64,000 bases of DNA from Escherichia phage vB_EcoM_3HA11: sequence record MN342150; one strand, written 5' to 3'. Positions 49,277 to 63,977 of the stretch are shown here, piece by piece. The translations under genes were made by a program, and so were the position numbers. The notes under the pieces are model-generated. The model worked only from the letters and a program-made list of their open reading frames with translations. It searched no databases and was not told where the DNA came from. Each line of letters starts with the position of its first letter. Positions within the stretch are counted from its first letter, which is position 1.

Positions 49277-49966
49277 ATGAAACGTTTAATCCTCGGGGTT
49301 GTGCTGGCAGGTCTGGCATTACCCGCCACCGCCAAGCTGAACTCCACAGGTGACAAACTGTGGTCTGATCTTTCCTACTGTGCTGGGTTCTCCCAGGCGG
49401 TCGCTATCGACAAGTCCGGTTCCATAGAGAATTTCGCTGAACTTTGGAACACGGGTAACGTCTCCACTGCTGTTGTTAATGCTGGGATTGAGTTCAACCG
49501 TTACAAACAGGGAGCCTACAACTTGAAAGGCTACCTGAATGACGATGAATTTAACCGAGGAGGCATGGAGGCTGGCGATCTCATCATGACTGGCCGTATG
49601 GGCACACAAGGCCGTATGACTGTAAGGCAATGCCGTTCTCTCCCCTCTCCGGCATTACAGAAGGGTGTGCAAATCGGGCGTCGACATTTGGATCTGATCA
49701 ATGATGGCAACCAATGCATCAAGGTGTTTGAATATAGTGCCGACCAAGAATCAGATCGACGTTTGAAAAAGGAATGGCGGACACGTGCCCTTGGATTGAG
49801 AGCATGGCTCGTAGAAAATGATTATTACTATGAGGATCGTGTTCAGAACGGATTGAAAGATCTTTCCACTAATTTGTCTGTCAATCTAGACGACCCAAGG
49901 CTTTCGCGTGAACTCAAGCAAACACGGATTGACTGCGACAATATGATGAAGGAGAACGAAAGATGA
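49277..49966 (+). CDS. Secreted protein with N-terminal signal peptide
   Basis: MKRLILGVVLAGLALPATA signal-like N-terminus after GGAGAA. Confidence 0.45.
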   Translation: MKRLILGVVLAGLALPATAKLNSTGDKLWSDLSYCAGFSQAVAIDKSGSIENFAELWNTGNVSTAVVNAGIEFNRYKQGAYNLKGYLNDDEFNRGGMEAGDLIMTGRMGTQGRMTVRQCRSLPSPALQKGVQIGRRHLDLINDGNQCIKVFEYSADQESDRRLKKEWRTRALGLRAWLVENDYYYEDRVQNGLKDLSTNLSVNLDDPRLSRELKQTRIDCDNMMKENER

Positions 49967-50283
49967 GAAACATAATATTCTTGTTATTCTTTTCTATGTT
50001 GGCATCATTCCAAGTTATGGCAACTCCGGCTAGCAAATTGAATATCTGTGCGGCCTGGTTGTCTACTTATCAACAATTTCACCCTGATGATAAAGATACA
50101 TCCATCCTTTTATCAGATTATGAAGGTGAGTTGAAACGCCTTGATCTCTACAGCGTGGATCAAATAGAGAATGCTTTGGATTTGCCAATGATGGAGTCCG
50201 CTGCCGACAATAGCAAACAGACGATCAAAGATCTGACTATGTGTCGGGAAATAGCGACTAATTTCGTTGGAAATCAAAGATAA
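49963..50283 (+). CDS. Small secreted protein
   Basis: MRNIIFLLFFSMLASFQVMA signal-like N-terminus; start/stop overlap. Confidence 0.4.
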   Translation: MRNIIFLLFFSMLASFQVMATPASKLNICAAWLSTYQQFHPDDKDTSILLSDYEGELKRLDLYSVDQIENALDLPMMESAADNSKQTIKDLTMCREIATNFVGNQR

Positions 50284-51296: not shown

Positions 51297-51353
51297 TTCA
51301 ATAACATTAGGGCGGTTATTATTAAACCGCCTTTTATTTGAGAGATCTATATT

Positions 51354-52022
51354 ATGAATAAGAAGAGTCGTATCATCATCGGCGCGGATCAGGGAAATCT
51401 GTATTTTGATACAACTGGTGCTATTGCCCACGCCATCCTTCCAACAGGTATTTCTGTTTATTGCGTCGAACATCCAGATCCAGCGATCAAACGACTTTGT
51501 TACATCCATCGTGAAAAGGGATTGATCGTATTACCGGAAGGCGCAATTATGCGCGCTCGTTCTTGGCCGATCGATTTTAATTCCATGAGCAATAGGGAGA
51601 TCGACGCCCGTTTCTTCGCATATAATATGAACCGGACTCTAAAAAATGAAACTCAGAGAGTTGTTAGTTTCGACAATGAAACTCATGGAGTGACGTTAGA
51701 ATTCAGAATTCGTGGTGAAGCTATTCAGGTGAAGAAATCAAGCTGGAAAACTGAAGGGATGTTCACATATGATTATGCGTTAACCGACAAATTGTGCAAT
51801 CAGTTTCGCATTAGTCTGACTGCCAACGACGATTTAGGTCAGTATGTTGTATGGACAGCCCGTTCACCACATATGAACGGTATCATGATGGAGAGTGAAA
51901 CTCGTAATCGCGCTGTGCTCCAACTGCTGCTGTTAGACGCGTATTCTCGCAATCCTCTGGAATATTTGTCTCGAGAGCAAATCGACAACGCTCTTTCCCA
52001 TTGCAATCGTCTGGAGGTGTAA
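51354..52022 (+). CDS. Hypothetical protein
   Basis: 222-aa ORF. Confidence 0.4.
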   Translation: MNKKSRIIIGADQGNLYFDTTGAIAHAILPTGISVYCVEHPDPAIKRLCYIHREKGLIVLPEGAIMRARSWPIDFNSMSNREIDARFFAYNMNRTLKNETQRVVSFDNETHGVTLEFRIRGEAIQVKKSSWKTEGMFTYDYALTDKLCNQFRISLTANDDLGQYVVWTARSPHMNGIMMESETRNRAVLQLLLLDAYSRNPLEYLSREQIDNALSHCNRLEV

Positions 52023-52023
52023 T

Positions 52024-52311
52024 ATGTCCGGCGTATGGTGTGATGTATTATTAGTGAGATTTTCAAACGGGATGGATAATCAGATCATTTCATTCTTTTA
52101 TCCTGTCCCTTTTTCTTCGATGGGCCTGACCGTCAAGCGCGTTCTTGACATAGAAGAAAAACTCAACGCCATGCCGTATATGGCGCGACCACACGTGCTG
52201 GGTTGTGAACTGTTAAACGAAATGATGATCGATGAGAATCTTGTTGAAACAATTATCACGCGTGAACAGATGAAAACCATACTGGCTCAGGGAGAACCCC
52301 ATGTCGAATAA
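52024..52311 (+). CDS. Hypothetical protein
   Basis: 95-aa ORF. Confidence 0.3.
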   Translation: MSGVWCDVLLVRFSNGMDNQIISFFYPVPFSSMGLTVKRVLDIEEKLNAMPYMARPHVLGCELLNEMMIDENLVETIITREQMKTILAQGEPHVE

Positions 52312-52621
52312 ACCGTTTGAACTTAAATTTCGCGTTTGGCATATTCCCCAGGTTCCTGGGATCGCTTTTCATGTTGAGGTTCCAACATTTGAAGAAGCGC
52401 AGCGCCTGAAGAATGCTCTGGGCGATTATGATTTGTTCCAGTTCAACAACAATATCAAGCCGGATTATTGCAATGCTTCGGGCATTCAGATTTATCAACA
52501 TGATCTGACCGATGATGATCTTAATGATATGGGTCTGGATGATCGTTGGGTTGATATGGAAGATGTTGACGAACTTAACGATTATTTCGAGCATCTGCGC
52601 AGTACAGGGTGGGAAATATGA
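52301..52621 (+). CDS. Hypothetical highly acidic protein
   Basis: C-terminal DDDLNDMGLDDRWVDMEDVDELNDYFE. Confidence 0.35.
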   Translation: MSNKPFELKFRVWHIPQVPGIAFHVEVPTFEEAQRLKNALGDYDLFQFNNNIKPDYCNASGIQIYQHDLTDDDLNDMGLDDRWVDMEDVDELNDYFEHLRSTGWEI

Positions 52622-52926
52622 TTTCAAAATATATTGTAAAGCCTGGGGATACTCTGTCCAGCATCGCTCTAAAATTATATGGGGATGCCCAACAGTATAT
52701 CAAATTAGCCAGATTCAACAATATCCAAAACCCAGGCCATATCACGGTTGGTCAGGTTATTTGTTTACCCACACCTGTCGAAGACAAAGAACACATTATG
52801 ATTCCGGTTCAACCGACACAGAAGTGTTTGGATGCGATAGCTGGTTTATTTCGACCAGGTTTTTGTGATGGAACTATTGAACGTCACATTTATCAAGCGA
52901 TTGTGGAAAACGCAGGTGTAAAATGA
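52618..52926 (+). CDS. LysM domain protein
   Basis: YIVKPGDTLSSIALKLYGDAQQYIKLARFNNIQNPGHITVGQVICLP fits the LysM peptidoglycan-binding motif. Confidence 0.6.
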   Translation: MISKYIVKPGDTLSSIALKLYGDAQQYIKLARFNNIQNPGHITVGQVICLPTPVEDKEHIMIPVQPTQKCLDAIAGLFRPGFCDGTIERHIYQAIVENAGVK

Positions 52927-53132
52927 ACGGATTAATTCGTTACCTGTTCATATTCGTAATTTCAACATTCATTTTATTTTTCTTTTTCAAATACTTGAAA
53001 GAGACTAAAATCTACCGAAGTAAACGTTGGCGCAAACGGGTGAGGGTAACTTTCCTGCTGCTGATTTCTTCGGTTACAATAACCGCACTCACATTGGGTG
53101 CATATATCTACATTTTTGAAGGGGTACATTGA
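52923..53132 (+). CDS. Small two-helix membrane protein (holin-like topology)
   Basis: Two hydrophobic segments (LFIFVISTFILFFFF, LLLISSVTITALTLGAYIYIF) separated by basic loop. Confidence 0.4.
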   Translation: MNGLIRYLFIFVISTFILFFFFKYLKETKIYRSKRWRKRVRVTFLLLISSVTITALTLGAYIYIFEGVH

Positions 53133-53923
53133 TGTTCAAGAAATTGGTGTTCGGTGCAATTATGGTTCTGGCTGCAAGTCTACTTTCTGGTTGTGGTGGC
53201 GTTATCGATGAAGGTAATGTCGGCGTTCGCACCCAATGGGGTGAAGTAGACATGAACCCTGTAACAGCGGGGATCTACACCAGCTTTGTTTCAAGCGTGG
53301 ATGTTTACACGACCAAAGAAGCCGTTGTGAGTCTGACTAAAATGACGCCAAAGGCCAAAGACAACCTGACTCTGGAAGACTTGGATGTGGATGTTTATTA
53401 CACACCCAATGTCGCAAAGGTTCCGTGGTTCCATACCAAATTTGCTGGCCAGAGCGCTGAACTCGATGATGGCACGATAGCGGTGGGTTTCAATCTAGTT
53501 AAAACTGCTGCAGCATCTTCTTCGATGGACGCCGTTTCTTCTCTTGATTCTATGACAATTCACACCCAACGTGCTGAATTAGAGAAGATGATTAAAGACC
53601 GCACTCAGCAACAATTAGAGACTGCTGCGCCTGGCATGTTCACAATCACACGCGTGTTGGTCAAAAAGGCGCTGACGGATCCTTCTATTGAGCAGTCTAT
53701 CCGTGATAATGTTATGGCGGACAAACGATTGGATACGGCAAGAAAGAACGTTGAAATTCGCGAGCAAGAAGCCCAAGCGAACCAGAAACTGACCACTTCG
53801 CTGACGCCTGAATATCTTCAACATGAATATAACATGGTATTACAATCATGTGCCAATAGTGGAAAATGTACTCTGATCGTTGACGGATCCGGCTCAGGTA
53901 AAATGCTGAACGTCGGCAAATAA
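53129..53923 (+). CDS. SPFH (band-7/prohibitin-like) domain lipoprotein
   Basis: Signal peptide with lipobox LLSGC; central region resembles HflK/C-stomatin band-7 domains. Confidence 0.45.
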   Translation: MMFKKLVFGAIMVLAASLLSGCGGVIDEGNVGVRTQWGEVDMNPVTAGIYTSFVSSVDVYTTKEAVVSLTKMTPKAKDNLTLEDLDVDVYYTPNVAKVPWFHTKFAGQSAELDDGTIAVGFNLVKTAAASSSMDAVSSLDSMTIHTQRAELEKMIKDRTQQQLETAAPGMFTITRVLVKKALTDPSIEQSIRDNVMADKRLDTARKNVEIREQEAQANQKLTTSLTPEYLQHEYNMVLQSCANSGKCTLIVDGSGSGKMLNVGK

Positions 53924-54006
53924 ACGCTTTATTCAATAATATTTGTTAGGTAAGCTGTAGTCCTCTTGTAGTGAAACATTGTAAACAACTAACTGGAGTA
54001 ATCCGA

Positions 54007-54285
54007 ATGAACCGTACTGATTTTATCGCTCACATCGCCCAGACTCAGGGTATGACCAAAGGCGAAGCAGAGAAGATCGTGGCATCTTTTATCAACGGCG
54101 TAAAAACTGCAGTCGCAGCTGGCCAATCTGTCCAATTCGTCGGCTTCGGCGCGTTTGAAGTTAAACATCAGGAAGCGCGCACTGGCCGCAACCCGCTGAA
54201 CGGGCAAGCGATTCAGATCGAAGCGAAAAATGTTGTTAAATTCAAAGTCGGCGAAGGTCTGAAAGCTGCCGCCAACGGCCAGTAA
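54007..54285 (+). CDS. HU/IHF-family DNA-binding protein
   Basis: VGFGAFEVKHQEARTGRNPLNGQAIQI matches bacterial HU signature GFG.F.V..R.ARTGRNP.TG. Confidence 0.85.
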   Translation: MNRTDFIAHIAQTQGMTKGEAEKIVASFINGVKTAVAAGQSVQFVGFGAFEVKHQEARTGRNPLNGQAIQIEAKNVVKFKVGEGLKAAANGQ

Positions 54286-54336
54286 TCACATTCAGAGCGG
54301 TCGTGCCTAGCACAGCGTGTTAGGCTAAAAGAGAAA

Positions 54337-54362
54337 GCCGAGGTTAATGCCTCGGCTTTTTC
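54337..54362 (+). terminator. Rho-independent terminator (gccgagg-ttaatg-cctcggc + tttttcg)
   Basis: Perfect 7-bp stem plus T-tract; preceded by a second imperfect hairpin at 54305..54325. Confidence 0.7.
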
Positions 54363-62668: not shown

Positions 62669-62998
62669 ATGAAAGTCGTCCACTTCAAGAAGGAGCCATA
62701 CGACGTCTACATTGGGCGGCCTGGCAAATGGGGTAATGACTTCGAAGTCAAAGACCATGGGCGCGGCGTTTGTATCGAGTTGTTTGAAGACGACTTGTAT
62801 GTGCGTCTAATTGAAGGGGCAATCACCGAGGATGAACTCCTTGAACTGGACGGGAAGATTCTAGGGTGCTGGTGTAAACCACGCCCCTGCCACGGGGATG
62901 TTTACGTCAAAGTGATCGGTCGTATTAAACTATTCCGTAAGTTGGGTAAATCTTTTACTGAATATTTGAGACAAACATATGTCAGAAGAGAAAGATGA
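62669..62998 (+). CDS. Conserved phage protein, possibly DUF4326-like
   Basis: Motif YIGRPGKWGNDF resembles the GRP.KWGNP signature recalled for DUF4326; weak. Confidence 0.3.
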   Translation: MKVVHFKKEPYDVYIGRPGKWGNDFEVKDHGRGVCIELFEDDLYVRLIEGAITEDELLELDGKILGCWCKPRPCHGDVYVKVIGRIKLFRKLGKSFTEYLRQTYVRRER

Positions 62999-63263
62999 AA
63001 TACAGATTGCTTGTGATATCGCTGTGGAATTATGGAATCAGCGAAATAAACATCATCAGGTAGCATTGACACCAAAACGTTACCTAGAGCAAGGTGGGTT
63101 GATCGTTGTTGACGCCGTCTTGGGTTTCAACAAGTACACAGATATGCAAATCCTCCAAGGGGATTTCATAGTGGCATCAAAATCAGCATGGGACGATCCT
63201 ATGGAGTTTGTCTACGGCTGGTTAGAGTGCATTGAGGAATCATACCATCTGATCTACGAATAA
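62979..63263 (+). CDS. Hypothetical protein
   Basis: 94-aa ORF. Confidence 0.3.
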   Translation: MSEEKDEIQIACDIAVELWNQRNKHHQVALTPKRYLEQGGLIVVDAVLGFNKYTDMQILQGDFIVASKSAWDDPMEFVYGWLECIEESYHLIYE

Positions 63264-63359: not shown

Positions 63360-63977
63360 ATGACGATGACAACGTTGAAGGCCATGGCCTTGTCCGTGAC
63401 CTTTACCATTGCCAGCGGGAGTGTGCACGCTTCCCAAAGTACCACCCAATGTGATTACGAATTTTCTGATCAGCAACTTTCAACTATGGCCACTGCCTAT
63501 CACATAGGCAAACAGCAAGACCTTGGTTTCACCCTCGCCGCAATATCATGGAGGGAAAGCCGCGCCGGAGAAGATGTTGTATCCATGCGGAATAACCTGA
63601 AATCGGCTAATATGGGGGCATTTCAAAATCGCGTCCAAACCGTCGGGAAACGGGAGGGATGCAAAACACAGAAGTGTTACGCCAATGTCGCGATCAAATT
63701 ACTGGTCAATCAAGAATATGCTGCCAATGCTGCCCTTGATGAAATGAATTTCTGGCTAGAATATCATAACCAAAACATCCGCAAATCGCTCTCCTCTTAC
63801 AATGCCGGTTTCAGTCGTAACCAAAAATCCAATTCATACGCTGCTGATGTCGTGAAGAAGGCTAAATATCTTCAACGATGTGTGTCTTTCAAAGGCATGG
63901 CAATAAACCCAAAGGTCGACCCAGGAGTGATCGCCATGAATAAGCGCACGATTGAGAAACTCAAGAGGACCCGATAA
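63360..63977 (+). CDS. Secreted lytic transglycosylase-like (SLT domain) protein
   Basis: Signal peptide (..ASGSVHA); AISWRESR ... ANMGAFQ resembles the SLT catalytic E-S and GxMQ motifs. Confidence 0.4.
   Translation: MTMTTLKAMALSVTFTIASGSVHASQSTTQCDYEFSDQQLSTMATAYHIGKQQDLGFTLAAISWRESRAGEDVVSMRNNLKSANMGAFQNRVQTVGKREGCKTQKCYANVAIKLLVNQEYAANAALDEMNFWLEYHNQNIRKSLSSYNAGFSRNQKSNSYAADVVKKAKYLQRCVSFKGMAINPKVDPGVIAMNKRTIEKLKRTR

Follow-up and report, generated by a model that had tools for sequence, protein, structure and literature searches.

In a stretch of 64,000 nucleotides from Escherichia phage vB_EcoM_3HA11 (sequence record MN342150), referred to below as the window, three consecutive overlapping genes on the plus strand (positions 52618-53923) encode a LysM protein, a 69-amino-acid (aa) membrane protein with two predicted transmembrane (TM) segments, here termed the hairpin protein, and a lipoprotein of the SPFH (Band 7) family. 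As judged by gene order and profile matches, the second and third genes form a conserved cassette of two genes, found repeatedly in several phage families, and the encoded pair is a phage-specific variant of the combination of an SPFH scaffold with a small membrane partner. The LysM protein, by the same kind of evidence, is lineage-specific and belongs with the cytoplasmic DUF7425/gp17-like block upstream, so that two separable things appear to be merely chained together in Kuttervirus. The original prediction had suggested that all three products could form one envelope-directed module, for instance for lysis timing. This holds for the hairpin and the SPFH lipoprotein, which make a genuine envelope-directed pair, and does not hold for inclusion of the LysM protein, since in sister phages each of the two, LysM gene and pair, is found without the other.

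Over the 3-kb region around the trio, the window shows 99.3% identity with Salmonella phage Sajous1 and 99.4% with Vi01, which by sequence identity places it among the Kuttervirus (ViI-like, Ackermannviridae) phages. The region is matched by 176 phage records, nearly all of them Kuttervirus of Salmonella or E. coli O157; 171 of the 176 show 90-99% identity, and 156 match with a coverage of at least 80%. This conservation indicates that the trio consists of real genes rather than chance open reading frames (ORFs). Existing GenBank labels read LysM protein, hypothetical protein, and SPFH protein or lipoprotein; the trio is thus already annotated publicly and its observation is not new as annotation.

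Recurrence of the hairpin-SPFH pair

The family alignment of the SPFH protein led to 28 viral loci, including 17 distinct ones outside Kuttervirus with SPFH identities of 35-54%. By an automated rule, which asked for a same-strand ORF of 45-140 aa with two hydrophobic segments upstream of the SPFH start, a hairpin ORF directly precedes the SPFH gene in 15 of the 17 loci, and by eye in all 17 (L018 and L032 pass by eye but not by the rule). In 14 loci the two genes overlap by one base at the closest and are 28 nt apart at the most, and in one locus the spacing amounts to 205 nt. For comparison, 18 such two-TM ORFs were counted elsewhere in 140 kb of these loci on both strands, corresponding to about 0.017 expected per slot. 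The abutting ORFs are 55-70 aa long and follow a common plan: a single Arg or Lys close to the N-terminus, then TM1, a loop containing 2-10 basic residues, TM2 and a tail of 2-11 residues that includes an acidic residue in 15 of the 17 cases.

One could argue that there is no functional coupling at all, i.e. that three unrelated accessory genes share a plastic region and the small ORF encodes an incidental membrane peptide. This would agree with the independent segregation of the LysM gene and the pair, with the almost complete lack of detectable similarity among the hairpins, and with the situation in Acinetobacter phage Ab15, where the hairpin is encoded two genes downstream of the SPFH gene and not upstream. 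However, the hairpin occupies the same slot in 15 to 17 of 17 loci, far above the background given above, with a common layout and with overlapping or nearly overlapping genes across loci that have no other neighbours in common. The pairing also spans Ackermannviridae, Schitoviridae, Straboviridae and unclassified contigs of up to ~115 kb. We therefore consider an absence of coupling very improbable.

In the Acinetobacter phages XC38 (Schitoviridae) and PhT2 (Straboviridae), the SPFH gene likewise has small ORFs for polytopic membrane proteins overlapping or abutting it. The SPFH proteins of both are relatives of the Ab15 protein, which is ~24% identical to the Kuttervirus one, and represent a remote clade of SPFH lipoproteins. 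Sixty-five bacterial chromosomal homologs were retrieved as well; in those among the matches listed (L036-L099, about half of the output), the protein carries a TM helix at its N-terminus and lacks a lipobox, and no hairpin is encoded upstream. The exception is L035 (Massilia), where a phage-type lipoprotein and a hairpin are encoded among phage-like genes. The SPFH homologs of the T4-like phages RB43 and 44RR likewise carry an N-terminal TM helix and have no hairpin, and the single viral locus without a hairpin (L033) also encodes a TM-anchored protein. These patterns suggest that the lipid anchor and the hairpin partner go together.

In the 17 loci, 123 ORFs lie within ~3 kb of the pair; the Pfam families most often encountered among them were RNase_T exonuclease, metallophosphatases, RNA ligase and RtcB; further frequent ones were RegA, RecA, dCMP deaminase, clamp loader and DNA ligase. 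We found no functional study of phage SPFH proteins in the literature, and according to a 2026 paper on an N4-like phage, why a phage genome should encode an SPFH lipoprotein "remains unclear" (PMC13239085).

Three further observations concern the neighbourhood of SPFH genes. In three unrelated phage contexts (L024:4857-5090; L032:4797-4937; L105:4998-5216, the latter being ORF097c of Aeromonas phage 44RR), the SPFH gene is directly followed by a small prepilin-like ORF whose N-terminus bears the methylation motif of type IV pilins (GFTLIEL...); such ORFs may be a second recurrent neighbour of phage SPFH genes. In Ab15, the SPFH gene and the 55-aa two-TM ORF are separated by a gene for a 163-aa protein with Gly/Val/Ser repeats, bactofilin-like in appearance when judged by eye (L005:4854-5345). 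Finally, in four bacterial loci from Steroidobacteraceae and other Gammaproteobacteria (L083, L085, L087 and L094), the gene for a TM-anchored SPFH homolog is located directly downstream of an ORF of 1249-1250 aa. This ORF resembles TamB in its size and N-terminal membrane anchor, which, if the resemblance is real, hints at an envelope-biogenesis context for the bacterial family.

The SPFH lipoprotein

The SPFH protein (263 aa; 53132-53923, plus strand) matches Pfam family PF01145 (Band_7) with E=3.2e-13 and 50.5 bits versus a cut-off of 23.6, the match extending from position 2 to 176 of the 176 profile positions; it also matches phrog_200 "lipoprotein" (E=4e-59). The SPFH assignment, for which a failing profile search had been named beforehand as grounds for refutation, is thus supported by this search, and an AlphaFold2 (AF2) model together with a Foldseek comparison agrees with it. 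The N-terminus, MFKKLVFGAIMVLAASLLSGC-GG, contains a canonical lipobox, and signal peptide and lipobox together read MFKKLVFGAIMVLAASLLSG-C (LLSG-C21; Cys codon at 53192-53194; test pattern [LVI][ASTVI][GAS]C). By these sequence criteria the protein is exported and lipid-anchored. The SPFH domain covers approximately nt 53201-53779, with its first strand starting from residue 21 in the model; the anchor beside the domain is a lipid and not a TM helix.

In a census by regular expression, 58 of the 72 distinct family members proved to have a lipobox (64 of the 79 that were scanned), with the pattern being mis-placed in a few of them. The residue following the lipid-carrying Cys (position +2) is Gly in the window; across the family it is Gly in ~65% and Phe in ~15%, followed by Met, Tyr, Thr, Asp and Val. 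Near its C-terminus the protein contains a pair of cysteines, Cys240-x5-Cys246 (nt 53849-53869). According to the census, most of the lipoproteins, but none of the TM-anchored members, have a C-x5-6-C pair before the C-terminal strand, which fits an oxidising, periplasmic location.

The AF2 model, calculated from the family alignment, reached a predicted local distance difference test (pLDDT) score of 86 and consists of the SPFH domain, a 40-residue helix (residues 184-223), a second helix (226-242) and a disordered tail; the two long helices correspond to a coiled coil. When the model was compared with the PDB by Foldseek, the matches spanned 230-290 columns, with E-values from 5e-13 to 1e-8 and a probability of 1.00, and were cage subunits of prohibitin, erlin, stomatin, HflK/C, QmcA-YbbJ and flotillin. 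A sequence search of the PDB with the single SPFH sequence returned no match, and one with the family profile reached E-values of 0.09 or worse. With this low similarity, the family is too divergent for an assignment to HflK, HflC, QmcA or stomatin at the sequence level. In the profile alignment with E=0.09, the C-terminal CAxxxKC-TLIVDG aligns with NSTIVFP of stomatin, a region where the pLDDT of the model is below 50. Taken together, the model suggests the full architecture of cage-forming members of the superfamily, i.e. an SPFH domain, a long coiled coil and a putative C-terminal oligomerisation strand.

The 69-aa hairpin protein

The hairpin gene (52923-53132, plus strand) matches phrog_11680 with E=6e-46. 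Its product had been described as a two-helix membrane protein, and the two hydrophobic segments are indeed evident, with TM1 at approximately residues 4-22 (nt 52932-52988) and TM2 at approximately residues 42-64 (nt 53046-53114). The intervening loop, KYLKETKIYRSKRWRKRVR, contains 10 basic residues (Lys or Arg), neither tail has any, and the C-terminal tail after TM2 (..FEGVH) is acidic, with one acidic and no basic residue. A topology prediction, which had been proposed as a check, was run on this basis: by the positive-inside rule the protein would span the membrane twice in an N-out/C-out orientation, with the loop in the cytoplasm.

Sequence searches with the hairpin found close relatives exclusively (68-97% identity), among them full-length 69-aa homologs at 68-74% identity. 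In a phmmer search against all ORFs of the related loci, a single Erwinia ORF was hit (E=0.0097). Pfam yielded a sub-threshold match to HisKA_7TM, and PHROGs two families without assigned function. The gene is unannotated in several deposited genomes, such as those of phiEa2809 (L004:4804-4998) and vB_SentM_sal1 (L003, between 5927 and 6133), and these records would need to be supplemented.

The LysM protein and its separate distribution

The LysM protein (102 aa; 52618-52926, plus strand) matches PF01476 with E=1e-11 and 45 bits versus a cut-off of 20.9, in line with its proposed identity. Its LysM domain comprises residues 5-51 (nt 52630-52770), and a nearly invariant motif, PTQKCLDAIAGLF..GFCDG.IER.IY, follows at approximately residues 62-92 (nt 52801-52893). 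The AF2 model shows the beta-alpha-alpha-beta LysM fold at a pLDDT of 80-86, with values below 50 in the C-terminal half. No signal peptide, TM segment or hydrophobic N-terminus was detected in the protein, the LysM domain beginning at residue 5. Scans against Pfam and NCBIfam returned LysM only and no catalytic domain of a peptidoglycan hydrolase. As encoded, the protein therefore has no evident route to peptidoglycan, as far as its sequence tells.

In RefSeq, the 102-aa protein is labelled "endolysin" (NC_015296, Vi01_110c, and many other Ackermannviridae records). This label probably traces to PHROG endolysin families that contain LysM segments: the PHROG "endolysin" matches of the protein are restricted to the LysM-type segment, and tail or baseplate LysM PHROGs are matched as well. 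With neither a catalytic domain nor an export signal, the protein was ruled out as an endolysin, and the annotation should be corrected.

Single LysM domains without a catalytic domain are also found in other signal-less proteins such as E. coli Kbp/YgaU and the P2 gpX-like small tail proteins. The top NCBIfam match of the phage protein is the LysM part of PRK11198, with E=1e-7 and far under the cut-off. In contrast to these proteins, it has no BON domain, its gene lies outside the structural block, and it possesses a lineage-specific C-terminal motif that is common to DUF7425 fusions. In the alignment of LysM protein homologs the C-terminal half is better conserved than the LysM domain. An exhaustive phmmer search with this half returned two real matches, the ortholog and a 260-aa protein, along with four repeat-protein artefacts. 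In the otherwise unrelated 260-aa protein (P0070) the motif is located at the N-terminus, and in Agtrevirus AV101, an Escherichia phage, tblastn found it fused to the end of DUF7425 (L106:3195-3635). The motif (PTQxxLDAIAGLFxxGFCD..; phrog_36147; 52801-52893 in the window) behaves as a small mobile module to which no function has been assigned.

A collection of 5.8 billion protein sequences contained only three 90%-identity clusters of the LysM protein. Two diverged ones sit on 158-kb contigs with the gene order DUF7425-gp17-LysM-HU-helicase, and on the contigs L100, L101 and L103, which resemble Klebsiella ViI-like phages, there is no gene between LysM and HU. The LysM-bearing 158-kb contigs share 84-85% identity with ViI-like phages of Klebsiella, e.g. 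Menlow and KpS110; their LysM region is matched by 44 Klebsiella phage records, with the same gene set among the matches listed. The SPFH protein, in turn, identified 180 phage records by tblastn, with high similarity in Kuttervirus and four Erwinia phages and weak matches in Synechococcus, Acinetobacter and Burkholderia phages; none of the 180 records is from a Klebsiella, Dickeya or Serratia member of the Ackermannviridae. In Erwinia phage phiEa2809, the SPFH gene (54% identity) occurs in the same region, upstream of HU and helicase genes, and is abutted by an unannotated 64-aa two-TM ORF, and a LysM gene is absent there. The corresponding slot in Agtrevirus AV101 lacks a gp17-like gene, the LysM domain, the hairpin and the SPFH gene.

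LysM without the pair in the Klebsiella relatives and the pair without LysM in phiEa2809 imply that the trio is not one module. By comparison of these loci, the pair is an insertion independent of the LysM block. It is also an accessory cassette: Kuttervirus and Nezavisimistyvirus have it, the Klebsiella and Agtrevirus relatives lack it, which makes it dispensable at the genus level as far as genome comparison can tell.

Is the pair part of the lysis machinery?

If the trio served lysis or lysis inhibition, the 69-aa protein could be the missing Kuttervirus holin, pinholin or antiholin, with the LysM protein targeting the wall and the SPFH lipoprotein organising holin rafts or delaying their triggering. 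No holin or spanin was identified in ViI-like phages in 2011 or 2019 (PMC3184105, PMC6486243, PMC6509533): the Texas A&M annotators reported an endolysin for phage Mooltan, with holin and spanins that "could not be reliably identified" (PMC6486243, PMC6509533), and CBA120 was described as showing lysis inhibition at high multiplicity of infection, with no holin named (PMC3184105). The small size of the 69-aa protein, its two TM segments and the RefSeq label of the LysM protein would fit as well.

On the other hand, the hairpin is absent from the Klebsiella and Agtrevirus sisters, which by inference share the lysis apparatus. The original prediction had called the 69-aa protein holin-like, and we miss the hallmarks that this term implies. 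Class II holins and pinholins such as phage 21 S68 are likewise small phage proteins with two TM segments, but they are oriented N-in/C-in, have a charged cytoplasmic C-terminus and often dual starts, and adjoin the endolysin gene. The hairpin has the opposite predicted topology, an acidic tail (2-11 residues in the family) in place of a charged cytoplasmic C-terminus, no dual-start motif and no match to a holin family in Pfam or PHROGs. In all 17 loci its partner is SPFH, in none a muralytic gene, and neither a muralytic nor a holin family was found among the 25 most frequent of the 45 Pfam families of the 123 neighbouring ORFs. The LysM protein lacks both a catalytic domain and an export signal. 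A lysis module in this sense appears distinctly improbable to us, and the hairpin was rejected as a poor holin candidate on the grounds of its predicted topology, the missing holin profile, its coupling to SPFH and its absence from sister genera that must lyse their hosts as well. We do not read the cassette as the set of holin, endolysin or spanins, and anyone engineering or assessing therapeutic Kuttervirus phages should not take the trio for a lysis cassette.

Two T4-like phages have the TM-anchored SPFH gene among the accessory genes of the tk-rI region: in RB43 (L104:10590-12243) it directly follows rI.-1 and rI, and in 44RR it is found at L105:1383-6193. As rI is the lysis-inhibition antiholin, this location would speak for a link to lysis. 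The tk-rI region of T4-like phages is hyperplastic, however, such that adjacency there weighs little, and we judged the link to be weak. The arrangement in RB43 could be a coincidence in such a region or a hint of a connection to lysis timing.

The annotated Kuttervirus endolysin is not encoded in the 64-kb window; in the Mooltan stretch that matches the window, no gene is annotated as endolysin (PMC6486243). Further downstream, an SLT-like secreted protein had been noted at position 63360. The ORF is present (205 aa; 63360-63977) and has an Ala/Ser/Thr/Gly-rich N-terminal hydrophobic segment, which could be a signal peptide or an anchor of the signal-arrest-release (SAR) type, and it matches the Pfam SLT profile only marginally (E=2e-4, 21.4 bits versus a cut-off of 21.3). 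It might be a secreted or SAR muralytic enzyme with relevance for the Kuttervirus lysis pathway. The Mooltan annotation oddly lists the homolog as "RegB".

Upstream of the trio, two overlapping genes (49277-49966 and 49963-50283) encode proteins with cleavable-looking signal peptides. The annotation of phage sal1 labels them "I-spanin", that of RefSeq and phrog_3843 "Rz-like spanin", and they have homologs in phiEa2809. By eye, neither protein has a lipobox or TM anchor, a Pfam search gave no match, and the 106-aa protein has an L-N-I-C tetrapeptide after a hydrophobic stretch. On these sequence features the spanin assignment looks doubtful.

Possible role of the pair

SPFH proteins such as stomatin, prohibitin, flotillin or HflK/C form membrane-enclosing cages, and their bacterial roles are largely open. 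For the phage pair, our best reading is that of an accessory scaffold of the SPFH type that faces the periplasm and has the hairpin for a transmembrane partner; as an account at the level of architecture, we give it about an even chance of being correct. The lipoprotein would stay on the periplasmic face of the inner membrane, as do the TM-anchored homologs and HflK/C, and would oligomerise there into a ring or cage like HflK/C. The hairpin would supply the transmembrane element that corresponds to the N-terminal TM helix of the bacterial and T4-like homologs, its basic loop reaching into the cytoplasm and its acidic C-terminus lying at the periplasmic surface. The cassette would be expressed with replication and recombination genes, that is, early or middle in infection, and would act in remodelling of the host envelope by fencing an inner-membrane patch that sequesters or stabilises a membrane client. 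As for the client, one may think of a host quality-control protease of the FtsH type, or of phage membrane proteins that such a protease would remove. This part is proposed by analogy and seems rather unlikely as it stands.

Several points weigh against the periplasmic scaffold. According to the classical enterobacterial +2 rule, Asp at this position retains a lipoprotein in the inner membrane. The SPFH lipoprotein has no Asp there and would by this rule go to the outer membrane, away from the inner-membrane hairpin; its presumed retention is based on analogy with the TM-anchored homologs and on a study by Seydel et al. (1999), in which Gly, Phe, Tyr, Trp and Pro at +2 reportedly could retain a reporter as well. 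In cyanophage B3, a TM-anchored SPFH protein occurs together with a small two-TM ORF upstream, which weakens the idea that the hairpin replaces the anchor. With sequences too divergent for a direct comparison, homology within the hairpin family is deduced from position and layout, and a physical contact between hairpin and SPFH protein is putative. An FtsH-type client is a matter of pure analogy. We found no expression, localisation or phenotype data for any member in the literature, and as neither holin nor spanins have been identified in Kuttervirus (PMC3184105, PMC6486243, PMC6509533), there is room for a role of the hairpin in lysis.

The absence of Asp at +2 is also where a function at the outer membrane comes in, namely superinfection exclusion or envelope shielding, with the hairpin as an Imm-like block at the inner membrane. 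T4 Imm, too, is a small protein of the inner membrane with two TM segments, the cassette is placed among genes of early type and beside a gene annotated "superinfection exclusion", and its patchy, accessory distribution would suit such a function. T4 Imm and Sp and T5 Llp are, as a group, small membrane proteins or lipoproteins from non-structural regions that alter the envelope of the infected cell. However, no sequence relation to Imm, Sp or Llp was found in Pfam or PHROGs, and Llp is a 61-aa receptor-blocking lipoprotein and not an SPFH scaffold. The gp17-like gene segregates with LysM and not with SPFH, and the P22 gp17 family allows a phage to escape exclusion rather than to exclude. The TM-anchored homologs must sit in the inner membrane, and we know of no SPFH protein that acts as a receptor or channel blocker. 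On balance, we hold an exclusion or shielding function to be unlikely.

A more far-reaching version of the periplasmic scaffold would be that the hairpin and the lipid-anchored SPFH protein represent a widespread, so far unrecognised phage system, in which an early cage on the periplasmic face controls the fate of membrane proteins and thereby sets lysis timing or lysis inhibition. Such a cage would hold, e.g., FtsH or holin precursors, in phages such as the ViI-like group, for which a holin has never been found. We rate this extension, including its proposed cargo, as quite unlikely. Envelope biology of the pair is plausible, and nothing points to a categorically new mechanism. If the periplasmic scaffold with its transmembrane partner is real, a virus-encoded, lipid-anchored SPFH protein with an obligate mini-partner would offer a compact and genetically tractable system for studying the effects of cages on membranes, and the pair could reveal a step of host takeover at the inner membrane that has not been described in phage biology.

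Comparison with known SPFH systems

The closest operational precedents for the pair would be HflK/C with FtsH, QmcA-YbbJ, and the recruitment of YdjI by YdjG/H, each of them as an analogy. E. coli HflK/HflC, which form a cage around FtsH, have in common with the phage protein, as predicted for the latter, a periplasm-facing SPFH domain, an N-terminal membrane anchor, a long coiled-coil wall and putatively a C-terminal cap segment, and match it over the full length in Foldseek (9cz2, 7wi3 and 7vhq; E-values from 1e-11 to 3e-8). They differ in that they are larger, possess N-terminal TM helices and assemble as a hetero-oligomer of two paralogs, whereas the phage SPFH protein is lipid-anchored, a single species and paired with the 69-aa hairpin. 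Sequence similarity between them is negligible (profile E-values of 0.36 or worse), and a connection of the phage protein with FtsH is suggested by analogy alone.

SPFH-NfeD operons (QmcA-YbbJ, PDB 8z5g; YqiK-YqiJ; archaeal stomatin-STOPP) likewise combine an SPFH gene with a co-transcribed small membrane partner, and the QmcA subunit is a structural match to the phage SPFH protein (E=1.2e-8). The hairpin gene is adjacent to and co-oriented with the SPFH gene as in the NfeD operons, the two overlapping in TGATG. The NfeD partners differ by having a soluble OB-fold domain and, in the long forms, a protease, whereas the phage hairpin has no soluble domain; no Pfam match to NfeD was obtained for it at E-values up to 0.1. 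QmcA is reported to face the cytoplasm (Chiba et al. 2006), in contrast to the predicted periplasmic orientation of the phage protein.

A third parallel comes from Bacillus subtilis, where YdjG/YdjH-YdjI (SamGHI) act with PspA. A TM-less SPFH protein is recruited to the membrane here by small integral membrane proteins from the same operon (PMC8581546). YdjI is cytosolic and links to the ESCRT-III-like PspA, whereas the phage SPFH protein is predicted to be exported and lipid-modified, and no PspA-like gene was found near the phage pair.

Transcription unit and neighbouring genes

As had been described, three consecutive overlapping ORFs are present on the plus strand, and inspection of the junctions confirms the overlaps. 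The stop codon of the gp17-like gene overlaps the LysM start in ATGA (52618-52621), the LysM stop overlaps the hairpin start in ATGA (52923-52926), and the hairpin stop overlaps the SPFH start in TGATG (53130-53134). The latter indicates that the SPFH gene starts with ATG 53132 and not with TTG 53129. A purine-rich, Shine-Dalgarno-like stretch precedes each of the three starts.

The trio is probably part of a seven-gene unit (51354-54285) bracketed by terminator-like hairpins, as far as the sequence permits such a delimitation. The probable upstream boundary is a hairpin followed by a T-run (51309-51333, plus strand; 9-bp stem with 5 GC pairs, tail TTATTT), and the probable downstream boundary a GC-rich palindromic hairpin (54334-54359; 10-bp stem with 6 GC pairs); in phage Mooltan, both are annotated as terminators at homologous places. 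The unit starts with a gene for a 222-aa protein without assigned function (51354-52022, plus strand; phrog_5426, E=2e-115), which occupies the same place in the Klebsiella and Agtrevirus relatives. It continues with the genes for a predicted cytoplasmic DUF7425 protein of 95 aa (52024-52311, plus strand; PF24200, E=5e-52) and for the P22 gp17-like protein of 106 aa that is annotated "superinfection exclusion" (52301-52621, plus strand; PF17420, E=6e-52; phrog_1510), the two genes sharing 11 nt. Downstream of the trio, the last gene encodes an HU-type DNA-binding protein (54007-54285, plus strand, coordinates according to Vi01_107c; PF00216, E=2e-29).

In the window, the unit is placed between gp45/44/62/RegA on one side and helicase/RNase H/gp55/gp47/gp46 on the other, which are early or middle genes in T4. 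Sigma-70-like promoter sites occur at chance level (16 found versus 15.5 expected), and the T4 late motif TATAAATA is present once in 64 kb versus 2.1 expected. A transcriptome of CBA120 or another Kuttervirus was not found in the literature. For the six scanned proteins of the unit, the PADLOC defence-system models gave no match, and the NCBIfam scan of the unit's proteins no informative family besides LysM.

Close to the SLT-like gene, the window contains ~0.7 kb (62669-63263) with a DUF4326 gene (E=4e-22) and a 94-aa ORF that are absent from Mooltan, representing an indel between otherwise 99%-identical genomes.

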